From assembly GCA_964622565.1 (NCBI GenBank), contig CAZUQL010000001.1:1-41132 (forward strand): 41,132 nucleotides of DNA. The letters are read 5' to 3'. The DNA comes from Candidatus Woesearchaeota archaeon (GTDB lineage Archaea > Nanobdellota > Nanobdellia > Pacearchaeales > GW2011-AR1). The notes below the pieces were generated by a model that saw only the letters and a program-made list of their open reading frames with translations, did not search any database and was not told the DNA's origin. The position numbers were made by a program, and so were the translations under genes. Positions 9,226 to 30,169 of the stretch are shown here, piece after piece (positions within the stretch are counted from its first letter, which is position 1; the number at the start of each line of letters is the position of its first letter).

Positions 9226-10566
9226 TTATACTTTCAGTTTTCCTAAATCCTGCATTAAGTGGCATTCTTTTCCAGCCCGATAACCCATTTCTCTACAAAG
9301 TTCAATCATAGGAGTTAGTTGAGCTGTTGAGCCGTGAGCAGGAATAATATTTTGAGGATTTAAAATTGAAATCAAATCTCTCAAATCTTCTCTTCCGCCG
9401 TGACCTGAAACATGAACATTATCAAATATTCTCACTCCTGATTTTTTTAATCTCTTATCCATGTTTTCTTTATTTGCAATATTAATTGGAACAGGGATAG
9501 TCTTTGAAGAGAATACTAAATTATCATTTTGTTTAAATTCAAATGGAAGTTCTCTTCGAGAAATTCTATCTAAAACACTTCCCGGTTCTCCTTGATGACC
9601 CGTACAAACAACCAAATATTTACTTGGGTTAGTTGAGACTCTCTTTAAAATCGACTCTACTTGTCTTTTGTAACTTCCCATTTTAACATCTCTTGCAAAA
9701 TTTGCCATTCCAACTTGAGATGCTGCTGAGACATATTTTTTTAAACTTCTTCCGATGAAAAAAACTTCTCTATTTAATTTATAGGCAAAGTCAACAATAC
9801 TCTTTAATCTTGCAATGTGGGAAGAGAAAGTTGAAACAAAAATGCAGGATTTTCTATTTTGAACAGTTAGAAGAACTTCTTCAAGCATTGCTCGTGCAAT
9901 TTTCTCGCTTGGTGTTTTTGTGTCTGAACCAGAATAAAGAGAATCAACAATTAGTGCTTTTACTCCTTCTTTTGCAATTTTTCTAAGTGCATGGTAATTT
10001 GGAGGCAATCCGACAATGGGATTATCATCGAGTTTGAAATCATTTGCATAGAGAACAACCCCTTCGGGCGTGTGAAGTGCAATCATAGAAGTTTGAATTG
10101 TTGAATGAGTGATGTTAATGAATTCTGCTTCATAATTTCGTTTTTTACCTTTAACAATAAATGAACTATTTGGTTTAAGAGAAACAATTTTATTTGGGAT
10201 TGAGATCTTTTCGTCAACTAAAATCTGTTTTAAAACTGCATTAGTAAATGGCGTTCCTACAATTGGAGCATTATAACGATAAGACATGTAAGGTAATGCG
10301 CCTATATGGTCAAGGTGAGCGTGTCCTAAAAGAATTGAACGGATATTTTTTCTAATTCCTAACTTATCTAAAACCAAGTCATCTGCAATCGCTCCCATTC
10401 CTCTTAACTTTTTTTCAGAAATTTGTTTTTGAATCTCTTGTTCTTGAAGCTCTACAATTGCAGGCATATAAAATCCAGAATCAAACATAACTGCATCGTC
10501 GCCAAGATTAACTACAGTCATATTTTTTCCCACTTCATTAAATCCCCCTAAAGTATGTATTTCCAT
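9226..10566 (-). CDS. rnj: Archaeal RNase J (metallo-beta-lactamase/beta-CASP ribonuclease)
   Basis: LGGFNEVGKNMTVV start, HxHxDH motif (LGHAHLDHIGALP), and beta-CASP-region D and H residues (ANDFKLD, HVSGHG). The ~446 aa size has no KH domains, so it fits aRNase J rather than aCPSF1. Confidence 0.85.
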   Translation of the reverse strand: MEIHTLGGFNEVGKNMTVVNLGDDAVMFDSGFYMPAIVELQEQEIQKQISEKKLRGMGAIADDLVLDKLGIRKNIRSILLGHAHLDHIGALPYMSYRYNAPIVGTPFTNAVLKQILVDEKISIPNKIVSLKPNSSFIVKGKKRNYEAEFINITHSTIQTSMIALHTPEGVVLYANDFKLDDNPIVGLPPNYHALRKIAKEGVKALIVDSLYSGSDTKTPSEKIARAMLEEVLLTVQNRKSCIFVSTFSSHIARLKSIVDFAYKLNREVFFIGRSLKKYVSAASQVGMANFARDVKMGSYKRQVESILKRVSTNPSKYLVVCTGHQGEPGSVLDRISRRELPFEFKQNDNLVFSSKTIPVPINIANKENMDKRLKKSGVRIFDNVHVSGHGGREDLRDLISILNPQNIIPAHGSTAQLTPMIELCREMGYRAGKECHLMQDLGKLKV

Positions 10567-10609
10567 TCTCTTTTATTCCAACTAAAAGAAATAAGGGTTT
10601 AATAATCTT

Positions 10610-11398
10610 TCAGTAGTTGAAAGTTTCCCAGAACACCAATCTGTTTTTGTTGTCTCTAAGAAAGAAAGTGTCACCTGTTTCAGTCCAAACCACCCCTTCG
10701 TCCCAAAAAATAGTTGTAGAAGAATTTTTTCCTTTACCCGCAATAATCGATACTTGAGAACTTGGGAACAGAACAAAACTCGGAAAGTAAAATTCCTTTC
10801 TTCCTTCTTCTTTAATCTTCCACAAAGTTAAATCACAAGAAAAAGAACAGATATTTTCTAAAACTACTTTTTGAGTTTTGAAGTTTAATTCTTTTAGGGA
10901 GATACAATTTGAGCATTTATTAGTTGAAGGTTCGCAAAGATTTTTTTGGTTTAGAATGCACTCTTCCCAAGCATTAAAGAATTGCTCTGTAAATTTGTCT
11001 TTTCCTGAAGGGAAGTAGGGGTTTGCAAACCCTTGTCTTATGATCTCAGAGTTGAGGTTTTCATTTTCAAAGAAAATATATGCAAGAGTTCGATTGTATT
11101 TGTCTTTCTTGTCTTTTCCAAATTCTAATAAAACTGTTTTGTTGAATATTTTTTGAATTAGATAGTTCTTTGCTTCACTTGAAAATTCTTCGCCTGTTTC
11201 TGGACAGTTGATTCCTAAAAGTCTTATTGAATTTTTTTGGAATTTTACAGTGTCTCCATCTACAACAGAAGTTACAAAAATAGAGTTCCCTGTTGGAAAA
11301 AAACCCTTAAGTTTTGAATCTAAAAAATTATAATTTATTAAGAAAAACGCAAGAATTAGAAAAAGGAGTAATATTAAATTTTTCAATTTTAAATTCAT
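10610..11398 (-). CDS. Membrane-anchored or secreted thermonuclease (SNase) fused to a lamin-tail-like domain
   Basis: VVDGDTVKF...IRLLGINCPE...RTLAYIF is the staphylococcal nuclease core. The C-terminus (LWKIKEEGRKEFYFPSFVLFPSSQVSIIAGKG...VWTETGDTFFLRDNKNRLV) matches the LTD pattern. I start at Met24 (MNLKLKNLILLLFLILAFFLI, signal/anchor), which has a TATA-like ATATTTATAA about 28 nt upstream. Confidence 0.75.
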   Translation of the reverse strand: MNLKLKNLILLLFLILAFFLINYNFLDSKLKGFFPTGNSIFVTSVVDGDTVKFQKNSIRLLGINCPETGEEFSSEAKNYLIQKIFNKTVLLEFGKDKKDKYNRTLAYIFFENENLNSEIIRQGFANPYFPSGKDKFTEQFFNAWEECILNQKNLCEPSTNKCSNCISLKELNFKTQKVVLENICSFSCDLTLWKIKEEGRKEFYFPSFVLFPSSQVSIIAGKGKNSSTTIFWDEGVVWTETGDTFFLRDNKNRLVFWETFNY

Positions 11399-16456: not shown

Positions 16457-17611
16457 TTATTCAACGGGGTTTTCTATTCTTAATAATTGAAGGTTTCCGA
16501 AATCTCTCAAGCCGGGCATTTTCTGAAGTATTTCCTCTAGTTTTGATTGCTTTATTTTTTCTAATAATGTTTCTGCTTCGGAGGGGCTTGTATCTTGTCT
16601 TACTAAAGAAGTACTTCCTCCAAGAAGTTTTATTTCCTGTTTTGCTATGTTTAATCGAGTTACTCTTTTCTGTTCTTCTACTTCTTGTAATGTTTTTTCT
16701 AATAAATCGAATACAAATTCTTCTTTCTGGTCTTCATCTAGGGGGGTGGTTCCTCTTTTCCACAAACCGAATCTCCGCAAAATTTCTAATGCTACATTAG
16801 AATGCATTATTTGTCTTCCATAACTTTCAATTACATAATCTAAAACAGACTGTTGATTCACCTCTTGATAAACTTCTGCAACAACTATTCTCCTTCCTTG
16901 AGTTCCGAATCTTTGCTTAACATTTGTTTTTAGGGGAAATTTCCCAACAAGAATTGATAGGTGATCTGCAAGATTTCCTCTTTCTTCATCACTTAAATTT
17001 ATCCAACTATTTTTATAGATAATTTTTCTATATCTTAATTTTTCAAGTGCTTTGAGATATTCTCCATCGGTAACTAACTCATCTATTTCTTGAAGTGCTT
17101 CTTGAAGTGAGTTTAGTTTTAGTTGGGATCTTCTTTCTGCAGATTCTTCAGTGTCTCCGGTTATCTCAAACCATTGAGAAATAGTTCCGTTTTTTAATCT
17201 TGTTTCATAATCAATTTTTCTTCTCTGCTCCTCTGTTGCTCTATAAACAAGGTCCATCTCTTCTTCACTGGCAGCACCTATCCAAAGGAAGGGTTCAGTA
17301 TCAAAAAGATAGTCTCCATCTGGACCTGGTTCTCTCCATGTTAAAAAAGGTAGATATCCGAGAACTTCTCCTTCTACTACTTTTTTTCCGTCTGTCACGC
17401 ACCTTAAATAATGTTGTCTTGTTGCTTCCCATTCTTCAGGAGTTTGAGTTCTATTCTCAATTGCACCTGTTGTAGATTTCCAAAATTTAATTTTTGAAGT
17501 TTTATCGGTGTATTTATTTAAAACTTTGACTTCAAAACCATCTTGTCTTAATTTAGCTATTGTTTTGAGTTCTTCTTCATTAGAAACAATCAAATATTTG
17601 AAATCTTCCAT
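16457..17611 (-). CDS. Hypothetical 384-aa soluble protein (orphan, Arg/Glu/Gln/Trp-rich)
   Basis: Long uninterrupted ORF. Reverse-strand CCTATAAATG (17630-17639) lies about 24 nt upstream of the ATG. No motif recognised. Confidence 0.6.
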   Translation of the reverse strand: MEDFKYLIVSNEEELKTIAKLRQDGFEVKVLNKYTDKTSKIKFWKSTTGAIENRTQTPEEWEATRQHYLRCVTDGKKVVEGEVLGYLPFLTWREPGPDGDYLFDTEPFLWIGAASEEEMDLVYRATEEQRRKIDYETRLKNGTISQWFEITGDTEESAERRSQLKLNSLQEALQEIDELVTDGEYLKALEKLRYRKIIYKNSWINLSDEERGNLADHLSILVGKFPLKTNVKQRFGTQGRRIVVAEVYQEVNQQSVLDYVIESYGRQIMHSNVALEILRRFGLWKRGTTPLDEDQKEEFVFDLLEKTLQEVEEQKRVTRLNIAKQEIKLLGGSTSLVRQDTSPSEAETLLEKIKQSKLEEILQKMPGLRDFGNLQLLRIENPVE

Positions 17612-17661
17612 AAAATTTAATCTTAGCTACATTTATAGGAATTATGGTTCTAAAAAATAGA

Positions 17662-18021
17662 TTAAAATCCACTTACATTCGATTTTCTTTCGAGGACTTC
17701 TATTCTTTGTTGGAGGTGGTAGATTTGGTTTGAGATGTCTTCTAATTTCGCAGTCATGTCCATGAGTCGCTTTGCGAGTTTTTTTCGTTTTTCGTCAGAA
17801 GATTCAGAAACTTGATTCATATTAGAAAAATCAGCATAACCTTCAGAAGACCCTGATGAACTTTCAGAGGACTCCATTGAATTAAAAAAACTTCCAAACC
17901 CGGAAGGAGGAACTGAATTTGACGAACTTGTATTTGAAAACGGGGGTGAACTTGGGGGGGATATGTTTCTTTTATAATTTGTAGTTAAATCTAAAATTTT
18001 ATTTTTCTTCCAAAATACCAT
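17662..18021 (-). CDS. Hypothetical protein with a Ser-rich low-complexity region and a C-terminal coiled coil
   Basis: 119-aa ORF. Own TATA (ATTTATAAAC, reverse strand, 18042-18051) lies about 25 nt upstream. C-terminus KRKKLAKRLMDMTAKLEDISNQIYHLQQRIEVLERK. Confidence 0.5.
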   Translation of the reverse strand: MVFWKKNKILDLTTNYKRNISPPSSPPFSNTSSSNSVPPSGFGSFFNSMESSESSSGSSEGYADFSNMNQVSESSDEKRKKLAKRLMDMTAKLEDISNQIYHLQQRIEVLERKSNVSGF

Positions 18022-18055: not shown

Positions 18056-18892
18056 TTAACTAAAAAAAATATTCGCGCCTGTTGAACTTAAAAAAGAAAG
18101 AATCATCAAGGCAAAAGAATGTTTGACTCCTGCTTTTAATGTTCCTTCTGCGAGTTTTCCTACGGCTAATCCACTAAAAAATCCCTGAACTAATAGTAAG
18201 TACAAAAACGACGTGGATAGAGTGTCTGGACTTAAATCACTCGAAGAAGTTGCTCCAGAACCAATTCCAATTGCTCCAACTGAAGAAATATTTGAAATTA
18301 TCGGCACAATTCTAAACTGCATTATTAAAACAATTATTATAAAAACAAAAAATATGATATAACCTTGAACAACTAAAGTTTGGATTACTGCTCTTCGTTC
18401 TTTTTTCAGTTTATCAGACATACTTACTGCTCCTGCAACAGATTCTAAAATTTCTCCAATATCCCCCCCTGCTTTTTCAGCTTGCCCAATTAAAGTTATT
18501 GCTCGAGAGATGTTTTTGTTTTGGATATCACTTGAAAAAACTTGAAGTGCTTTTCCTAAGGGTATTCCCATTGCAATTTGATTTGCAAGCTTTTTAACAT
18601 GTTTACTTAAAACTCCATAAGGTTTGTCTCTTACGTTGATTATACTTTTACTAATCGGAGTTCCAACTTTCACACTCTCAACAAGATTTCTTGCGAATTC
18701 TAAAAACATCTCTTCTTTTTCAGTAGATTCAATATTTGAATTAACCACCGAAAGAACAAATGGGGATATTGAGATGATTATTCCAAGTCCGATTAAGAAA
18801 AAGAAAAATTCAGTGTTTCTTAAAACAATGGCTCCAGCTATTAAAAGAACACCGAGGCTGATTCCAATTAAGTCTATTTTGTTTAGTTTCAT
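18056..18892 (-). CDS. Type IV pilus platform protein, single T2SSF domain (TadC/FlaJ-like)
   Basis: Two N-terminal TM segments, a cytoplasmic T2SSF-like block (FARNLVESVKVGTPISKSI...LANQIAMGIPLGKALQVFS...AITLIGQAEKAGGDIGEILESVA), then TM helices. Confidence 0.75.
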   Translation of the reverse strand: MKLNKIDLIGISLGVLLIAGAIVLRNTEFFFFLIGLGIIISISPFVLSVVNSNIESTEKEEMFLEFARNLVESVKVGTPISKSIINVRDKPYGVLSKHVKKLANQIAMGIPLGKALQVFSSDIQNKNISRAITLIGQAEKAGGDIGEILESVAGAVSMSDKLKKERRAVIQTLVVQGYIIFFVFIIIVLIMQFRIVPIISNISSVGAIGIGSGATSSSDLSPDTLSTSFLYLLLVQGFFSGLAVGKLAEGTLKAGVKHSFALMILSFLSSTGANIFFS

Positions 18893-20184
18893 TATGATTG
18901 AGGTTGTTTTAAATGTAAGAAAGTCAAGAATAAAATATTTATTCCGACTACTCCGAGAATCATTACAAGAGTTAACATTGTTGGACCTAAAGAGATTCCT
19001 AGTCCACTAATTTGAATTGTCATAAGTAAAAGCATAAGCATCATTGGGGCGGCAATTACTACGCTGATATAAATGTCCATAAATGTTTCAGCGGATTTTG
19101 TTTGTTTTTCTCGTTCAAGCCTGTAATCGAATAAAAGTGTTTGAGAACGTTTTTCAAAAAAGCCCTGCAAATCTCCTCCCGAGCTAATTGTTGTTGCTAG
19201 ACCATTAAAAAGTTCGTTGAGTTTTGGACTTGCAGTATTTGAAGCGGAAATTTTTAGAGCAGTTACTAAATCATATCCATAAACATTAATTTGGTTAATT
19301 AATTTTTTAAACTCTTTTTCAAGAAATTTGTATTCTCCAGTTGAAATTAAAATCTCGAATATCCTACTTGGTTCTACCATTGCTCCTGAAATCGCAGACA
19401 TGTGAATTACTGCGAAAGGAAGTTCTCTCTCGATTCTATTTGCAACAGATTTTTTTTCAAGAGAAGGATAAAAGTATAATGAAAAAAAGGTGATTAGGGG
19501 AATTAAGGGAACAATCCAAAAAAGAGTGAGGAGGCGGGTTAAAAATTCTCCAGAATAAACACTTAAAAAAGGTAATGAAAGACTAACTTGAAAAATCATT
19601 AAAAAAGTGAATAAAATAATTCCAGAAAGAAAAGAAACAAGGGTGGTAAAGAAAATTACAGAGATATAACTTACAGGAAGCATCATTAAATTAGATTTTA
19701 TTAAGTCTCTTTTTAAAGATTGAAAGAATAATTCATGTAAAACTTTCTGAGAAGTTGGAGAAAAAAACCGATTTGAAAGTTTGACAAAAGAATTAGGGGA
19801 TTTTTCCTTTTGAGATGGGCGGGTTTTTTCTTTTTGTTTTATTCTTCGAAGAATATCTGGATCGATCTCAAGTTTTTCTTTTTCTTTTTGAAGTATTGTT
19901 GGAGAAGAGATACTTGGGAGAATCCTCCTCAATGGTTTTTTAGGAGTAGGAATTTTTTCATAGTGGACAACTTTTGGAAGGGAGATAGAGTCAACTATTT
20001 CAGGAATATCTTTATTTATTTGATTTAGAAGTTTTGAAAGGGAGTTTATTTGAGCGGAAATTTGGGATTTGTCTTGATCAGAAACAGCTCTTGATTTTCT
20101 CTCGAAGAGAAACTGGATTTTTTTTGCAATTTCTTTTTCCTTCTTAATGTATTCACTTAAATTAGAAAAACTATTTGAAATCAT
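18892..20184 (-). CDS. Type IV pilus platform protein, single T2SSF domain with a long N-terminal coiled-coil extension (TadB/FlaJ-like)
   Basis: T2SSF-like block (ELPFAVIHMSAISGAMVEPSRIFEIL...YGYDLVTALKISA...LFNGLATTISSGGDLQGFFEKRS) flanked by TM helices. TAATG 1-nt overlap with the downstream platform gene. Confidence 0.75.
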   Translation of the reverse strand: MISNSFSNLSEYIKKEKEIAKKIQFLFERKSRAVSDQDKSQISAQINSLSKLLNQINKDIPEIVDSISLPKVVHYEKIPTPKKPLRRILPSISSPTILQKEKEKLEIDPDILRRIKQKEKTRPSQKEKSPNSFVKLSNRFFSPTSQKVLHELFFQSLKRDLIKSNLMMLPVSYISVIFFTTLVSFLSGIILFTFLMIFQVSLSLPFLSVYSGEFLTRLLTLFWIVPLIPLITFFSLYFYPSLEKKSVANRIERELPFAVIHMSAISGAMVEPSRIFEILISTGEYKFLEKEFKKLINQINVYGYDLVTALKISASNTASPKLNELFNGLATTISSGGDLQGFFEKRSQTLLFDYRLEREKQTKSAETFMDIYISVVIAAPMMLMLLLMTIQISGLGISLGPTMLTLVMILGVVGINILFLTFLHLKQPQS

Positions 20185-20345
20185 CTTGTTATTTTGTCCA
20201 CTGCTCGCTGAACTTGGATAATAAAGCTTTTGGATAAATTAAATCTCTCCCTGTCTTTTGTCTTAAAAGAAAAGTTTAACACTTCTTCTGCTTCTTCGAG
20301 AGAGTCTAAAAGTTTAATTAAAAATTGTATGTCCTCTTTTTTCAT
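20181..20345 (-). CDS. Unlisted 54-aa ORF between the pilus ATPase and the platform genes
   Basis: Hand translation gives MKKEDIQFLIKLLDSLEEAEEVLNFSFKTKDRERFNLSKSFIIQVQRAVDKITR. Its TGA overlaps the ATG of the 18892-20184 gene (ATGA). It falls below the size cut-off of the supplied track. Confidence 0.35.
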   Translation of the reverse strand: MKKEDIQFLIKLLDSLEEAEEVLNFSFKTKDRERFNLSKSFIIQVQRAVDKITR

Positions 20346-20379
20346 GATTTTAAGAAGATATTTGTATTATTAAAGTTTT

Positions 20380-21942
20380 TTAACTTCCAATTCCCAACTT
20401 ATTTAAAACAGCTTTTGGGTTTTTGTAATACTCGTCGATAATCTCTTGAACTTCCTTGAAGCCACTTATCTTTTTTTTGTAGAGTTCGAAAATTATTTTA
20501 ACTCTCCTTTGGAATTCTAAGTTCAATTCCTGAATACTTAAACCGTATCTTTGGGAAATTTTTTCAAGTATTCTGCTACTTTTTTTAAAGTAAAATTGGT
20601 TGTCTGCAGGGTTCCATACAAAGGGGGTGTTTGTTTTTGCGATTCCTTGTGAACTTACGTCTATTATTTCAACTATCTCTTTTAATTTTCTTGTTTCTTC
20701 GTTATTCACAACTGCGTGAGTCATGACGCAAACGCAATCTAAAACATTCAGAAGAGTGGGAGAAAGTTCAATGGGGGGAGTTTCAAGTCTTTTAATAACT
20801 GTGTCCACAGAATCTCCATGAATCGTACTTAAAGAAGAATGTCCTGAAGCCATACCTTGAAATAGAACATAAGCTTCTTTTCCTCTTACTTCACCTACAA
20901 TTACATAATTGGGATTTTGTCTAAATGAACTTTTTAATAATGCGAATAAGTCAACTTCTCCTAAATTTCCTACTCCTGTTGAACTTCGAACTACACTTGG
21001 AAGCCAATTTTCTCGAGGGAGATTTAGTTCTCGAGTATCTTCAATTGAAACTACCCTTGCTTCAGGAGGGATAAAAAAGGCAATTGCATTTAGTAAAGTT
21101 GTTTTACCTGAAGAAGTTCCACCGGCAATTAAGATATTCATCTTGTGTTCAATCAACAACCATAGATAAGCTAACATCTCAGGACTTAGAGTTTGGAAAG
21201 AGATTAATTGGGGAGGAGTCCAGGGTTTTGTTGTAAATTTTCTTATTGTAAATGTAGGTCCTCTACTTGAAATATCTTTAGTGTAGGTAGCATTAACCCT
21301 GCTTCCATCTGGAAGGTTCCCATCTAAAATTGGATTTGCATAAGAGATATATTTTCCGCATCGCTGTGCAAGCTTTTCAACAAATCCCCCTAAATCATCT
21401 AATTCATCAAAGATAATATTTGTTTTTAGATTTCTGAATATCCGGTGAACAATATAAATTGGAGTTTTGGCTCCGTTACATTCAATATCTTCTACAAAAA
21501 AGTCGTTTAAGAGGGGGTCTATTTCATTAAATCCCACAAACTCCCTATAAAGATAATAGTAAATTTTTTTGTAACTTTCGTAAGTCATATCAAATCCAAG
21601 CTCAATTGCAAGGAGCTTTAACATTTTATCGATGTATTTCAGAAGCTCGTCTTTGTTTTTTTGGACAACACTATCAAAATCAATTATCTCTCTCATTGCC
21701 TCAATAATTTGGTCTTTGTAGGTTGTTTCTTTTTCATCTAAATCTGGTTCTTCAATTTCATAAAAAAGTTCAGAATGTTTTTTATGCCAGTAGATATGAG
21801 CAAATGCAAACGGCGCAATAAGAGGGTACCTCACGTCAATTTGTGATTTATCTTTTGGTCTTTTTATTGGAGGGGGTCTTGGAAATTTTATTTCAACTTG
21901 GGGATATTGTTCAACATTTTTAGATTTTGTTTTTGTAAACAT
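20380..21942 (-). CDS. Type II/IV secretion-family ATPase (FlaI/PilB/TadA-like pilus assembly ATPase)
   Basis: Walker A LIAGGTSSGKTTLLNAI, Asp box IEDTRELNL, Walker B and Arg (YVIVGEVRGKEA), and His box (GHSSLSTIHG). Confidence 0.9.
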   Translation of the reverse strand: MFTKTKSKNVEQYPQVEIKFPRPPPIKRPKDKSQIDVRYPLIAPFAFAHIYWHKKHSELFYEIEEPDLDEKETTYKDQIIEAMREIIDFDSVVQKNKDELLKYIDKMLKLLAIELGFDMTYESYKKIYYYLYREFVGFNEIDPLLNDFFVEDIECNGAKTPIYIVHRIFRNLKTNIIFDELDDLGGFVEKLAQRCGKYISYANPILDGNLPDGSRVNATYTKDISSRGPTFTIRKFTTKPWTPPQLISFQTLSPEMLAYLWLLIEHKMNILIAGGTSSGKTTLLNAIAFFIPPEARVVSIEDTRELNLPRENWLPSVVRSSTGVGNLGEVDLFALLKSSFRQNPNYVIVGEVRGKEAYVLFQGMASGHSSLSTIHGDSVDTVIKRLETPPIELSPTLLNVLDCVCVMTHAVVNNEETRKLKEIVEIIDVSSQGIAKTNTPFVWNPADNQFYFKKSSRILEKISQRYGLSIQELNLEFQRRVKIIFELYKKKISGFKEVQEIIDEYYKNPKAVLNKLGIGS

Positions 21943-21943
21943 T

Positions 21944-22516
21944 TTAATTAATCAGTTCTAAGTTTATTTTAATCCTCCCAAACTCGTCATTTCCAAGATT
22001 GGAAATTGCTAATTTGTAGGGAGTTGAAGATTTTGAAAAGGTTTTTATTTGATTGTTTTCGTTGTAAGTTAAATCATAGATTTTTGAATAATTTGAAGTT
22101 AGAGTAATGTAGGCAAGGTTGGACTTTTTTTCAGTTAGTAAAATTAAGTCTCCGTATTCTACATTTATTCCTGGGTCGCTGGCAAAATAGTTGCTTTCGT
22201 CGAGTTTAAACTGAATTAAATTTTCTTCAGAATTAAATTCTAATATCCCCTTTGAAATATAAACTTTTACAACTCGTTTGTCTCCAGAAATTCCTGCTCC
22301 TGCAGATTGTATTTTTAAGTCTAGTTCTTGAAGAAGCTCAATTGATTTTTCAATAACTGCTTTGTCTTGAATTTCCCGAATTTTTGGTCGAATAAATGTT
22401 AAAGCTGCACCGATAATCGCAAGCACAATCAATGTATAAATTACTGTCTCTACCCAAACTTGAGCTTTTTTAGATTTAACAATATTTGAAATCAAATTAT
22501 TCTCCCTCTTTTTCAT
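21944..22516 (-). CDS. Pilin-like protein with a class III (prepilin-type) signal
   Basis: A charged N-terminus then KKAQVWVETVIYTLIVLAIIGAALTFI. 190 aa with a beta-rich remainder. Confidence 0.6.
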   Translation of the reverse strand: MKKRENNLISNIVKSKKAQVWVETVIYTLIVLAIIGAALTFIRPKIREIQDKAVIEKSIELLQELDLKIQSAGAGISGDKRVVKVYISKGILEFNSEENLIQFKLDESNYFASDPGINVEYGDLILLTEKKSNLAYITLTSNYSKIYDLTYNENNQIKTFSKSSTPYKLAISNLGNDEFGRIKINLELIN

Positions 22517-22552
22517 AAAATATTTAGTTTAAATTAATTTAAATAGTTATTC

Positions 22553-23050
22553 CTAACAACTTTCAATTCCTTGAAGTGTGTCGGAGATTCCGCATGAGTT
22601 TCCGGAGATTTTTGGAGATATACTTATAGAAAGGGGATTGTTAATTCCCGCGGAAGTTAAATCAACAAGATAAGCAATTCCTGAATTTTCTTCGGGAATT
22701 AAAATTATTGTTGAACTGTCAAACATTTGAACATTTGCAACTTCTGTGTTGTTTTTTATTTTGAATGATTTGGATTCTTCAGAGTTTTTTACTGAGATTA
22801 GAATTTCGTCAACACTAATTTCCCCAACTTCAATTAGAATTTTCAATTTTCCTGAAGAAGTATTATAACAACTTAGAGTTTTATCTATTGTTATTTTATC
22901 GTAAATATCAAAACAAGACTGGGCTTGATCGAGGTTTTTTTGAACAAGATTCTGAACAACAACCCAAACAATTGAAATTGATGCCATAACTAAGGCGATT
23001 AGAATAACTGTAGTTACAACAGCTGAAAGCCCTTTAGAATTCAATTTCAT
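22553..23050 (-). CDS. Archaeal type IV pilin-like protein
   Basis: MKLNSKGLSAVVTTVILIALVMASISIVWVVV is the KG|LS...TT.IL class III signal and DUF361-type N-terminus. Start taken at the internal Met (23050) rather than 23074. Confidence 0.7.
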   Translation of the reverse strand: MKLNSKGLSAVVTTVILIALVMASISIVWVVVQNLVQKNLDQAQSCFDIYDKITIDKTLSCYNTSSGKLKILIEVGEISVDEILISVKNSEESKSFKIKNNTEVANVQMFDSSTIILIPEENSGIAYLVDLTSAGINNPLSISISPKISGNSCGISDTLQGIESC

Positions 23051-23477
23051 AACCGTTTCCTTCGTCGCATACAAAATTTACTTGACCTGAGTTTGAGTTT
23101 CCTTTTAATACGGGAATTAAAATTATTTTAGTTAAGCCATCGCTGTCAAAAGAATATGAACCACTTTGTCCAGAGTTTAGGGGATTGATTGCAAAATCTT
23201 CTAAGTCTAAAGTTGAATAACCTGAGTCAGCGTATTCTTTGACTTTCATGTCTGCGATTGGAACATTTCCTACATTTGAAATCAAAATTTCTCCTCCCAC
23301 ATATTCTGCTCTGAATACAACGTCGTTGCAAACAAGTTCAACATTTTGTCCTCCAAATTTGGTTATTGCTTCTTGAGTTAGACTCCTAAAAAACACCCAG
23401 ATAATTGCAATTGAGACTACGACAATTCCGATTAATAATACTGTAGCAATCACCGGAGATAGAGCTCTTTTTTTCAT
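23034..23477 (-). CDS. Archaeal type IV pilin-like protein
   Basis: MKKRALSPVIATVLLIGIVVVSIAIIWVFF is a near-textbook archaeal prepilin/archaellin N-terminus (RALSPVIATVLLI). Confidence 0.75.
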   Translation of the reverse strand: MKKRALSPVIATVLLIGIVVVSIAIIWVFFRSLTQEAITKFGGQNVELVCNDVVFRAEYVGGEILISNVGNVPIADMKVKEYADSGYSTLDLEDFAINPLNSGQSGSYSFDSDGLTKIILIPVLKGNSNSGQVNFVCDEGNGYEIEF

Positions 23478-23521
23478 AGTTATCTAAGTTTGAAGATGTT
23501 TATAAATTTTTAGAATTAAGT

Positions 23522-24004
23522 TTAACAACTCTTTGGAAGAGTTTCAATAATCTTTGCATTTGAGCAAGACAGAACTTGTTGTTTAGAATTAACTTCTTGG
23601 AATCTAACTGGAGTTACTTCTAATTTAAAAATCGGTTGGGAATATTCAAATAAATAAGTTAAGGTTTCTTCTCCGGGATTTAAGGGAGGGTCTAATTTAA
23701 AAAATCCTGCTCCTAAATTTCCGACTAAATCAAGAGTTGCAATTTCTTGTTCTGTGGATGTCGTGGCTTTAAGATAAACCCCGTTTATTTGAAATCTTCC
23801 TGAATTTTTTAATCTGAGATTCAAGACTCCTGAATCACAAAAAACATCTTGAACAAATATAGAAGTTTCGTCGGGGCAAGATGGAATTTCAGTGGGAATA
23901 TAACTTTTCATCCAGAGATAAACAATTCCACTTATTGCAATCATTGTCGCTATTAATAAAACATAACCTACAACAACACTCACGGCTTTTTTATTTTTTA
24001 ACAT
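23522..24004 (-). CDS. Archaeal type IV pilin-like protein
   Basis: MLKNKKAVSVVVGYVLLIATMIAISGIVYLWM. Start taken at Met12 (24004), one nt after the upstream stop. Confidence 0.65.
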   Translation of the reverse strand: MLKNKKAVSVVVGYVLLIATMIAISGIVYLWMKSYIPTEIPSCPDETSIFVQDVFCDSGVLNLRLKNSGRFQINGVYLKATTSTEQEIATLDLVGNLGAGFFKLDPPLNPGEETLTYLFEYSQPIFKLEVTPVRFQEVNSKQQVLSCSNAKIIETLPKSC

Positions 24005-24005
24005 T

Positions 24006-24542
24006 TTATCTTTGAGTTGTATATACCTCTTCTCCAATCTTTCTTGAGAGAATAAAGTAAAAGTTCTCTCCAGGTTTAAGGTCGAATTTGTATTTAATAT
24101 TTTCTATTTCAACAACAACAAGATTATTTTCAGTATCGAGGGTAATGTCTTCGATTTCTTTTTTTTCAAGTCCTTGAATTTGAATAGATGAAGAAGAGTA
24201 TCCGGGCAAACTTAATTGCACGACTCCTTTTGAAGATTCTTCGTAGGTATATGCAGAAATTCCGTTTTCGTCGCCGAACACAAAATATCCTCGGGTGTCT
24301 TCGCCAGCATATTCAGAATAAAGTGCAGTAAAATGTTCTAAAAGAAGGGACATTTGGGGCTTATCATAGAATTGGGTTTCTCCATATTCTAAAACTTTTG
24401 AAGATTCAAAACTTAATTCTTCTGTTACATCATAAGGCGAGGGATTTTTTTTAAGAGAATTGCTAATTGAAAAGAATCCAATTAAAATTGCAAGGATGAT
24501 TATTCCGGCAACTAAATAGAATTGTCCTCTTTTATTTTTCAT
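24006..24542 (-). CDS. Pilin-like protein with a class III signal; first gene of the pilus operon
   Basis: MKNKRGQFYLVAGIIILAILIGFF. Reverse-strand CTTTTATAAA (24564-24573) is centred about 26 nt upstream of the ATG. Confidence 0.6.
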   Translation of the reverse strand: MKNKRGQFYLVAGIIILAILIGFFSISNSLKKNPSPYDVTEELSFESSKVLEYGETQFYDKPQMSLLLEHFTALYSEYAGEDTRGYFVFGDENGISAYTYEESSKGVVQLSLPGYSSSSIQIQGLEKKEIEDITLDTENNLVVVEIENIKYKFDLKPGENFYFILSRKIGEEVYTTQR

Positions 24543-24581
24543 AAATTAAAAAACACGAAGAAGTTTATAAAAGTGTTGAAA

Positions 24582-29716: not shown

Positions 29717-30169
29717 ATGAAAAATACTCGTGGTTTGTCTACAGTTGTTACAACACTGATAATTGTGTTGCTTGTACTTGTTGCTTTAACAATTGTTTGG
29801 ACTGTTATAAGAAATATTGTAGAGGACAGTGCAGCACAAACAGATATCAAAGCAAAATGTTTAACAGTAGATGTAAGGGTTACTAATGCTGTCTGTGATG
29901 AAGAAGGAATTTGTGATGTGACTATTGCTCGAGGTGCTGGAACAGGAGATAACGACCTTGGTGGGGTTTATCTAAAGTTTAGTGAAGGTACTGAAACAAA
30001 TGTTGTTGAACAAATAGGAAACATCGATAGATTAGATTCACAAACATACGAAGCTGTTGACTCAATGTTAATTCCAGACAAAGTGGAAGCATTTGCATAT
30101 TTTGTAGATGATTCTGGAAATGCGCAGCCTTGTGATGCTGGAGACTCATTCACTATTGAAACAGCCTAA
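29717..30169 (+). CDS. Archaeal type IV pilin, stand-alone and Shine-Dalgarno-led (major pilin candidate)
   Basis: MKNTRGLSTVVTTLIIVLLVLVALTIVWTVI (RG|LS class III signal). AAGGAGGT at 29705-29712 lies 4 nt before the ATG. TATA-like CCTTTTTATAGAGG at about 29659-29672. Confidence 0.8.
   Translation: MKNTRGLSTVVTTLIIVLLVLVALTIVWTVIRNIVEDSAAQTDIKAKCLTVDVRVTNAVCDEEGICDVTIARGAGTGDNDLGGVYLKFSEGTETNVVEQIGNIDRLDSQTYEAVDSMLIPDKVEAFAYFVDDSGNAQPCDAGDSFTIETA

Follow-up and report, generated by a model that had tools for sequence, protein, structure and literature searches.

The window analysed here is the 41,132-nucleotide contig CAZUQL010000001.1 of a Candidatus Woesearchaeota archaeon, the first contig of a 59-contig, 585-kb assembly with a completeness of 85%. 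Nine open reading frames (ORFs) lie head to tail on its minus strand, from position 24542 to 18056, in the order P1, P2, P3, P4, P5, ATPase, s54 (an ORF of 54 amino acids (aa)), PlatN and PlatC (Table 1). A prediction made earlier from the letters of the window (the sequence-only reading) had placed all nine at these coordinates, and had proposed that they encode a type IV pilus machine rather than an archaellum, with five pilin-like genes carrying class III signals and a platform split into two genes, in a reduced archaeon. These proposals are borne out: the cluster is a conserved nine-gene locus for a non-motile type IV pilus in a small, probably host-dependent archaeon of the Pacearchaeota type. 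The organism belongs to the DPANN archaea, and relatives of its ATPase at 66–74% identity come from metagenome-assembled genomes titled Pacearchaeota, Woesearchaeota or Nanoarchaeota.

The two-gene platform and the ordered locus

PlatN and PlatC carry one PF00482 (T2SSF) domain each, over the cut-off. These are the only two T2SSF domains of the whole assembly, and with the window ATPase they form its sole ATPase/platform set. The two proteins are complementary halves of fused platforms. On the ArlJ/FlaJ model (555 positions) PlatN covers 25–249 and PlatC 283–536; PlatN residues 232–399 align with 87–255 of a fused 614-aa Methanoperedens platform (E = 8e-20), and PlatC residues 60–268 align with 405–604 of the same protein (E = 2e-26). 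The similarity between PlatN and PlatC is weak (E = 2e-5).

The PlatN and PlatC frames overlap by one base and are in different phases, which would suit a single gene broken by an assembly frameshift, and the functionality of DPANN type IV filament (T4F) genes has been questioned (PMC13705601), which would suit a decaying remnant. Of 41 genomes from the same family or order, however, 39 have adjacent T2SSF pairs in separate frames (∼430 + ∼285 aa), and the junction varies from a 1-nt overlap here to abutting genes in the Pacearchaeota contig L037 and a 103-nt gap in the Woesearchaeota locus L054. PlatN has >2,299 homologs of its length with a single domain, the best 120 of which are 347–489 aa long and have a single PF00482 each. 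The ATPase is 66–74% identical among Pacearchaeota-type loci, P5 and P1 have invariant residues across their homologs, and the catalytic motifs of the prepilin peptidase are intact (see below). The two-gene platform is genuine, and a broken gene or a decaying locus is very improbable.

The sequence-only reading had held that archaeal platforms are usually one polypeptide. In five reference genomes this is true of FlaJ, which is fused in four of four cases, but not of the non-archaellar systems, which are split about as often as fused. Two tadC-like genes have been described in clade 1 (Epd), many clade 2 loci and clade 4B (Makarova et al., 2016; PMC4858521), and System 1, with the Nanobdellati (DPANN) among its carriers, is defined by two platform genes (Sivabalasarma and Albers, 2026; PMC13705601). 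Among the non-archaellar pili of archaea a two-gene platform is a common form, and machines of this kind, platform included, are on record in archaea already. Ten relatives have a further pair of neighbouring T2SSF domains, in frames of ∼300 and ∼330 aa; this second split platform type is missing from the genome of the window.

The first platform protein had been credited with a ∼170-aa coiled-coil extension. Only residues 1–60 of PlatN are proline-free and helix-compatible, and all 11 prolines of the extension fall within 61–143. Lys (25) and Ser (23) dominate residues 1–165, with a net charge of +15. From its composition, the extension appears to consist of ∼60 helical residues followed by a basic Pro/Ser/Lys-rich linker. 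It belongs to the family, because most of the best 120 homologs align over 90–100% of the query.

The 54-aa ORF of the sequence-only reading proved to be a real gene. An s54 profile has matches in 21 of the 25 genomes of the family, each of them immediately 5′ of PlatN, and orthologs of the same length occupy the slot in L030, L037 and L052. In L054 the slot holds a longer ORF, and PlatN there has 575 aa. No TM (transmembrane) segment was predicted in s54, and the profile search assigned it to no Pfam family.

The 511-kb contig L037 carries all nine genes in identical order. In a hand tally of the distances among P1, P5, PlatN and s54 across the relatives, P5 was found in 35 of 41 genomes. In 20 of these 35 PlatN follows it on the same strand at a distance of 2.6–4.0 kb, in 8 the two are separated, and in 7 contig breaks intervene. 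In 21 genomes P1 precedes P5 by 1.6–4.4 kb, and the whole array is intact in 11. The parts of the machine are conserved across the order, and s54, the PlatN extension, the invariant P5 and the mixture of signal types are its lineage-specific details. According to the 2026 survey, DPANN rarely show ordered T4F loci with pilins (PMC13705601). An ordered pilin/ATPase/platform locus is frequent in this order, which qualifies that statement.

Downstream (3′) of PlatC, at 16457–18021, the window has two unrelated orphan genes (119 and 384 aa), each with a TATA, and L037 has two more pilin-like genes (227 and 159 aa) in this place (9857–11013). The window's orphan genes lack counterparts in L037 and are probably not machine parts.

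Pilin-like genes, prepilin peptidase and transcription units

P1 to P5 (147–190 aa) share a short basic N-terminus, a Gly or Ala, and then a hydrophobic helix of ∼20 residues, and all pass a FlaFind-like scan, for which a class III signal is [KR][GA] followed by a ∼20-residue hydrophobic helix. The sequence-only reading had set its cleavage marks 1–2 residues too far C-terminal, since by convention the cut in archaeal prepilins is placed after G/A (PMC4371748, Table 1 footnote). P2 is likelier to start at the ATG at 24004 than at the TTG listed at 24037.

Pfam/NCBIfam profile searches matched P3 to TIGR02537, the archaellin/type IV pilin N-terminal domain (34.3 bits, cut-off 20), and to Pilin_N (23.9 bits). 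P2 has weak matches to UpsA (E = 1.8e-4) and Pilin_N, and across P2 and P4 the weak matches are to UpsA, Pilin_N or DUF7289. The same searches returned no family match for P1 and P5. The N-terminus of P4 is 42% identical to that of P3, a P3 paralog lies on contig C8 (1618–2100), and a P2 ortholog occupies the equivalent position in L037. P2, P3 and P4 have PibD-type A/G|[LV]S sites and lack the two marks of EppA substrates, +1 Gln and +5 Glu (PMC4371748).

P5 has both marks. Across 45 homologs its residues Q19, W21, V22, E23, T24, V25, Y27 and L29 are invariant, and its family comprises 1,059 representative clusters at E ≤ 0.001. An AlphaFold2 model of P5 (predicted local distance difference test score (pLDDT) 93.5) shows a helix at 8–74 followed by ten strands, and in this prediction the layout is that of a classic pilin. 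In P1, G6, Q7, F8, Y9 and L10 are invariant across 80 homologs, one distant member of which bears the JGI label ‘UPF0333’; the +1 Gln is present without the +5 Glu. In the P1 model (pLDDT 85.7) a TM helix is followed by a hairpin of two helices and a domain of eight strands, which would suit a minor pilin-like or assembly component. We also considered a PilO/GspM-like assembly factor, given the layout of TM helix, helical hairpin and beta domain, and nothing favours it over a minor pilin. One relative has another P1-like copy immediately 5′ of P1 (G024:C11:15306–15737); an in-frame TAA interrupts it, and it is probably a decaying tandem duplicate.

A stand-alone pilin gene elsewhere in the window (29717–30169) is 31% identical to P4 over 136 aa (E = 1e-12). 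Its product is a probable extra substrate of the window machine and a candidate major pilin. The gene has a GGAGG-like motif upstream, which is unusual for this mostly leaderless genome.

As the sequence-only reading had stated, the window has neither an A24 prepilin peptidase nor archaellum accessory genes detectable in the profile searches. The genome-wide search that it had proposed found an intact A24 enzyme outside the window, at C12:7723–8559 (278 aa; PF01478, 54–57 bits, over the cut-off). Its catalytic motifs, Asp22 and AGGD84, are intact; it has ∼7 predicted TM segments and a weak FlaK_Arch match (41 bits). This small enzyme is the one A24 peptidase found in the 85%-complete assembly. 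It opens a cluster (C12:7723–12651) in which six ORFs of 129–342 aa with class III signals (KRG|QE.., RRA|NIS.., KKA|IL.., KKA|DK.., KRG|SQ.. and RKA|EIS..) follow on the same strand. The cluster has no ATPase or platform of its own and is therefore presumably served by the window machine. Either one peptidase cuts both EppA-type and PibD-type sites, or a second peptidase is encoded in the missing 15% of the genome.

The promoters were analysed against all 513 genes of ≥120 aa. TTTAWA starts at −29 in 88 genes, at −27 in 40 and at −28 in 14 (142 of 513 at these three positions), over a background of ∼3–5 per position, and Shine-Dalgarno-like motifs precede ∼22% of genes. The sharp peak at −29/−27 from the ATG suggests that most mRNAs are leaderless. 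The TATA element that had been noticed upstream of P1 (TTTATAAA at 24571–24564) lies at −29 from the ATG, the modal position of the genome. One leaderless operon had been proposed for the whole locus. Four leaderless units, P1-P2, P3-P4, P5-ATPase and s54-PlatN-PlatC, are more likely on the motif evidence, because P1, P3, P5 and s54 each carry a TATA-like box at modal spacing. The remaining genes, P2, P4, ATPase, PlatN and PlatC, have no TATA box, and each abuts or overlaps the preceding gene. The sole T-run (T8) of the locus is at the 3′ end of PlatC, with none between the units. A scan for sigma-70 promoters and intrinsic terminators gave chance-level results, as expected for an archaeon.

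Gene arrangements in relatives fit the four-unit reading. In two related loci (L027 and L041) an opposite-strand gene lies directly 3′ of the ATPase, and in five genomes the P1–P5 block is apart from the s54/platform block or on the opposite strand, the ATPase there not having been located.

Table 1. Positions in the window of the pilus genes, the TATA-like boxes upstream of them and a stand-alone pilin-like gene
Feature	Position	Strand	Length (aa)	Remarks
TATA-like box TTTATAAA	24564..24571	-		−29 from P1 ATG; proposed unit 1 (P1-P2)
P1	24006..24542	-	178	KRG|QFYL; TM helix, helical hairpin, then beta domain (model)
P2	23522..24004	-	160	KKA|VSVVV; starts 1 nt past P1 stop; no TATA of its own
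TATA-like box TTTATAAA	23499..23506	-		−29 from P3 start; proposed unit 2 (P3-P4)
P3	23034..23477	-	147	KRA|LSPVIA; archaeal type IV pilin
P4	22553..23050	-	165	SKG|LSAVV; 17-nt overlap with P3 3′ end
TATA-like box TTTAAATT	22536..22543	-		−27 from P5 start; proposed unit 3 (P5-ATPase)
P5	21944..22516	-	190	KKA|QVWVE; mature N-terminus QVWVETVIYTL invariant; +1 Gln, +5 Glu
ATPase	20380..21942	-	520	T2SSE (E = 5e-29); FlaI/PilB/VirB11 superfamily, non-archaellar clade
TATA-like box TTTAATAA	20367..20374	-		−29 from s54 start; TTTAWA variant; proposed unit 4 (s54-PlatN-PlatC)
s54	20181..20345	-	54	Soluble, helical; stop overlaps PlatN start (ATGA)
PlatN	18892..20184	-	430	TadB-like N-half; one T2SSF (E = 2e-13); 165-aa basic N-terminal extension
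PlatC	18056..18892	-	278	TadC-like C-half; one T2SSF (E = 1e-14); start overlaps PlatN stop (TAATG)
Stand-alone P4-like pilin gene	29717..30169	+	150	TRG|LSTVVTT; found by class III scan

ATPase affiliation and the role of the machine

The ATPase matches PF00437 with 101.6 bits and has the Walker motifs. Its best match among solved structures is the non-archaellar A. fulgidus GspE (2OAP, 376 bits), followed by Sulfolobus FlaI (267) and CpaF (155). It scores 384 bits against the FlaI equivalog NF058587, below the cut-off of 550; 135 bits against the TadA/CpaF model TIGR03819 (cut-off 373); and 223 bits against the bindosome BasE model (cut-off 1000).

Maximum likelihood trees (LG+C20) were built for two row sets, one with 27 rows. 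The references, four genuine FlaI (651–830 bits) and paralogs, came from the genomes of five distant matches. The FlaI form one 100/100 clade and five DPANN ATPases another, and the DPANN ATPases are joined at 98/97, or at 94/96 with 27 rows, by non-archaellar ATPases of Methanomicrobiales and Methanoperedens. A joint DPANN and FlaI clade is rejected by the approximately unbiased (AU) test (p = 0.02). The ATPase is not an archaellar FlaI.

The FlaI model is the best NCBIfam match of the ATPase and the platform halves match ArlJ models, which would suit an archaellum with divergent parts. Against this stand the sub-threshold FlaI score, the separate FlaI clade, the AU test and the split platform, FlaJ being fused in all four references. 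Archaellin PF01917 gave no match at E ≤ 1 in the 85%-complete genome. KaiC/ArlH, ArlF/G and ArlC/D/E/X were absent from the locus and flanking proteins, ArlH not having been searched for genome-wide. The sequence-only reading had named an ATPase grouping with FlaI, plus accessory genes just outside the window, as the result that would overturn it; the ATPase does not group in this way, and we give an archaellum practically no credence.

The split-platform ATPases of Thermococcus and Hydrothermarchaeales, and a Methanothermococcus fragment, do not belong to the 100/100 clade in which the DPANN group is placed. The Methanomicrobia systems within that clade comprise four fused platforms and one split, and platform state mapped on the ATPase tree requires at least three split/fused changes. 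From this small sample, with no verified EpdL in it, we can say only that platform state is evolutionarily labile and that the ATPase does not secure the label ‘Epd’. Verified EpdL, AapE, UpsE and Haloferax PilB references were not among the rows, so that assignment to the systems of Makarova or of the 2026 survey is indirect; we infer that the Methanomicrobiales/Methanoperedens ATPase clade corresponds to Makarova's ‘clade 2’.

Some ATPases met in this comparison are unusual in form. A pilus ATPase of Thermococcus (L068, 5611–8733) has an intein-like insert, which matches models of intein-bearing RFC, IF2, helicase and RNA polymerase. A Hydrothermarchaeales locus (L067, 4276–7398) and a second Thermococcus locus encode two tandem-fused ATPase copies in a single frame of 1040–1097 aa. 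All of these Thermococcus and Hydrothermarchaeales ATPases adjoin split platforms. The genome of the window itself encodes a second T2SSE-family ATPase (C8:12831–15110, 759 aa) with a long N-terminal extension and no neighbouring platform. In the trees it pairs at 100/100 with a Methanoperedens protein in a 772-aa frame (L090), far from the pilus and archaellum ATPases; that it might be a retraction ATPase is speculation.

Taken together, we consider it likely (probability about 0.78) that the genome's single T4F assembly machine makes a pilus of non-archaellar type, which most probably serves as an adhesive fibre for attachment to surfaces or host cells. A host-attached life is generally assumed for DPANN archaea, and few of the molecules behind this contact are known. 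The pilus is a sensible candidate attachment organelle, because it is the sole T4F machine of a 585-kb genome in which the class III scan found >20 plausible class III signal proteins. An attachment role is suggested by the lack of motility parts, the DPANN lifestyle and the pili seen on ultrasmall episymbionts by cryo-transmission electron microscopy (PMC7906910).

In such a machine, the peptidase would cut the prepilins after G/A, and PlatN and PlatC would assemble into a pseudo-dimeric platform equivalent to fused FlaJ/PilC, as is thought for TadB/TadC and EpdJ/EpdK. A hexameric-type ATPase would dock on the cytoplasmic T2SSF domains and drive pilins from the membrane into the filament. P5 may be a core filament or priming subunit: it has a long alpha-1 helix and an invariant +1 Gln and +5 Glu, occurs as a single copy and would share a transcription unit with the ATPase. 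Major or variable subunits could come from P3 and P4, both of which have paralogs in other parts of the genome. s54 and the basic N-terminal extension of PlatN would form a lineage-specific cytoplasmic accessory module.

Several points weigh against the adhesive pilus as described: (i) the identity of the machine as a T4F is well supported, but its adhesive, host-attachment role is argued by analogy, from lifestyle and missing motility parts; (ii) none of the nine proteins showed an adhesin domain; (iii) the genome is 85% complete; (iv) in Foldseek searches the P1 and P5 models had no significant match among solved pilins or Protein Data Bank folds, so that the pilin calls draw on signals, architecture and context; and (v) the four-promoter model is built on motif position alone, and read-through from the first promoter is possible, as there are no T-run terminators between the units.

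The same machine could instead serve mainly in DNA uptake or nutrient scavenging, as a competence pilus or a bindosome-like pseudopilus. Such a role would suit an auxotrophic symbiont in need of imported nucleotides, and M. maripaludis cannot be naturally transformed without its Epd-type pili (PMC10133366). T4F machines have been proposed to be functionalised by binding proteins with class III signals (PMC13705601), and the >20 class III signal proteins of this 585-kb genome and the BasE match are also in line with such a role. The BasE score is, however, far under its cut-off, and the Pfam/NCBIfam searches detected no substrate-binding-protein domain in P1 to P5. ComEC (PF03772) was not found in the assembly, which is weak evidence, since competent archaea may use another transporter. 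We regard these functions as unlikely to be the main role, and adhesion as the better account.

Comparison with known systems

All core components of the T4F superfamily are present: an ATPase, a two-T2SSF platform, class III subunits and, outside the window, an A24 peptidase. With the archaellum (ArlI/ArlJ/ArlH and archaellins) the locus shares a homologous ATPase, a homologous platform and the logic of class III signals, but it differs from it in FlaI score and clade, in archaellins and in accessory genes. It resembles bacterial Tad/Flp systems (TadA/CpaF, TadB, TadC) in having two single-T2SSF platform proteins and one ATPase. In contrast to these systems it has no Flp-size pilin and, within an archaeal envelope, no secretin or outer-membrane parts, its pilins have globular beta domains, and its TadA score is well under the cut-off.

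The sequence-only reading had called the locus Epd-like and named the methanococcal EpdJ/EpdK as a precedent for a two-gene platform, which is correct (PMC4371748); in Methanococcus maripaludis the two single-domain platform genes are both essential. In the 2026 survey most DPANN pilins are assigned to the Epd-type System 1, and 1,990 Nanobdellati genomes have System 1 pilins (PMC13705601). The likeness to Epd (System 1, Makarova clade 1) extends to the two single-domain platform genes, to a non-motile pilus and to +1 Gln pilins, of which there are several in Epd; here P5 has +1 Gln and +5 Glu and P1 +1 Gln only. Gene order differs as well: M. maripaludis has epdJ-epdK-epdL, and its pilins and eppA are encoded at other sites (PMC10133366); in the window the platform genes follow the ATPase gene, and the pilin genes belong to the same locus. 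The PibD-type sites of P2 to P4 are a further difference, as is the one small A24 peptidase found in this 85%-complete assembly in place of the large EppA. The window ATPase also lies apart from the Thermococcales and Methanothermococcus split-platform ATPases, in trees without verified EpdL. PF04021 (Class_IIIsignal/UPF0333), the Epd signal, had no match over the cut-off in the genome, the M. jannaschii control being positive, and a scan of 35–95-aa ORFs for [KR][GA]Q with a hydrophobic stretch gave no short EpdE/Flp-like major pilin. On these sequence characters the Epd-like label therefore applies only partly: it holds for the P5 signal and the two platform genes, but not for PF04021 or the short pilin, nor, as far as an 85%-complete assembly and trees without verified EpdL show, for the large EppA or the ATPase grouping.

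System 2/clade 2, represented by Haloferax volcanii (PilB3/PilC3, PilA1-6) and A. fulgidus GspE, includes the nearest solved relative of the ATPase (2OAP). The ATPase groups with non-archaellar Methanomicrobiales/Methanoperedens ATPases at 94–98% support, and P3 and P4 resemble PilA-type pilins (TIGR02537, weak DUF7289). By the definition of the 2026 survey, System 2 has one platform gene (PMC13705601). Here there are two, and the nearest Methanomicrobia relatives of known state are fused in 4 of 5 cases. MinD/KaiC and a large adhesin are missing from the nine genes, and s54 and the PlatN extension are lineage-specific.

It is conceivable, though doubtful, that the Pacearchaeota/Woesearchaeota pilus is a distinct lineage outside the System 1/System 2 dichotomy, with an independently split platform and a new cytoplasmic module made up of s54 and the PlatN extension. 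The platform may have split independently, given that the Methanomicrobia of the ATPase clade are mostly fused and that at least three changes fall on the tree. If so, the s54/PlatN-extension module may replace the KaiC/MinD-type accessories of other archaeal pili, and the single small peptidase would have to process both EppA-type (+1 Gln/+5 Glu) and PibD-type prepilins. The locus leaves the picture of how T4F machines work unchanged. The small conserved protein between ATPase and platform is a modest addition to the 2026 T4F survey, and in the comparison ‘two platform genes’ is a trait that shifts in evolution and does not cleanly mark any one system.

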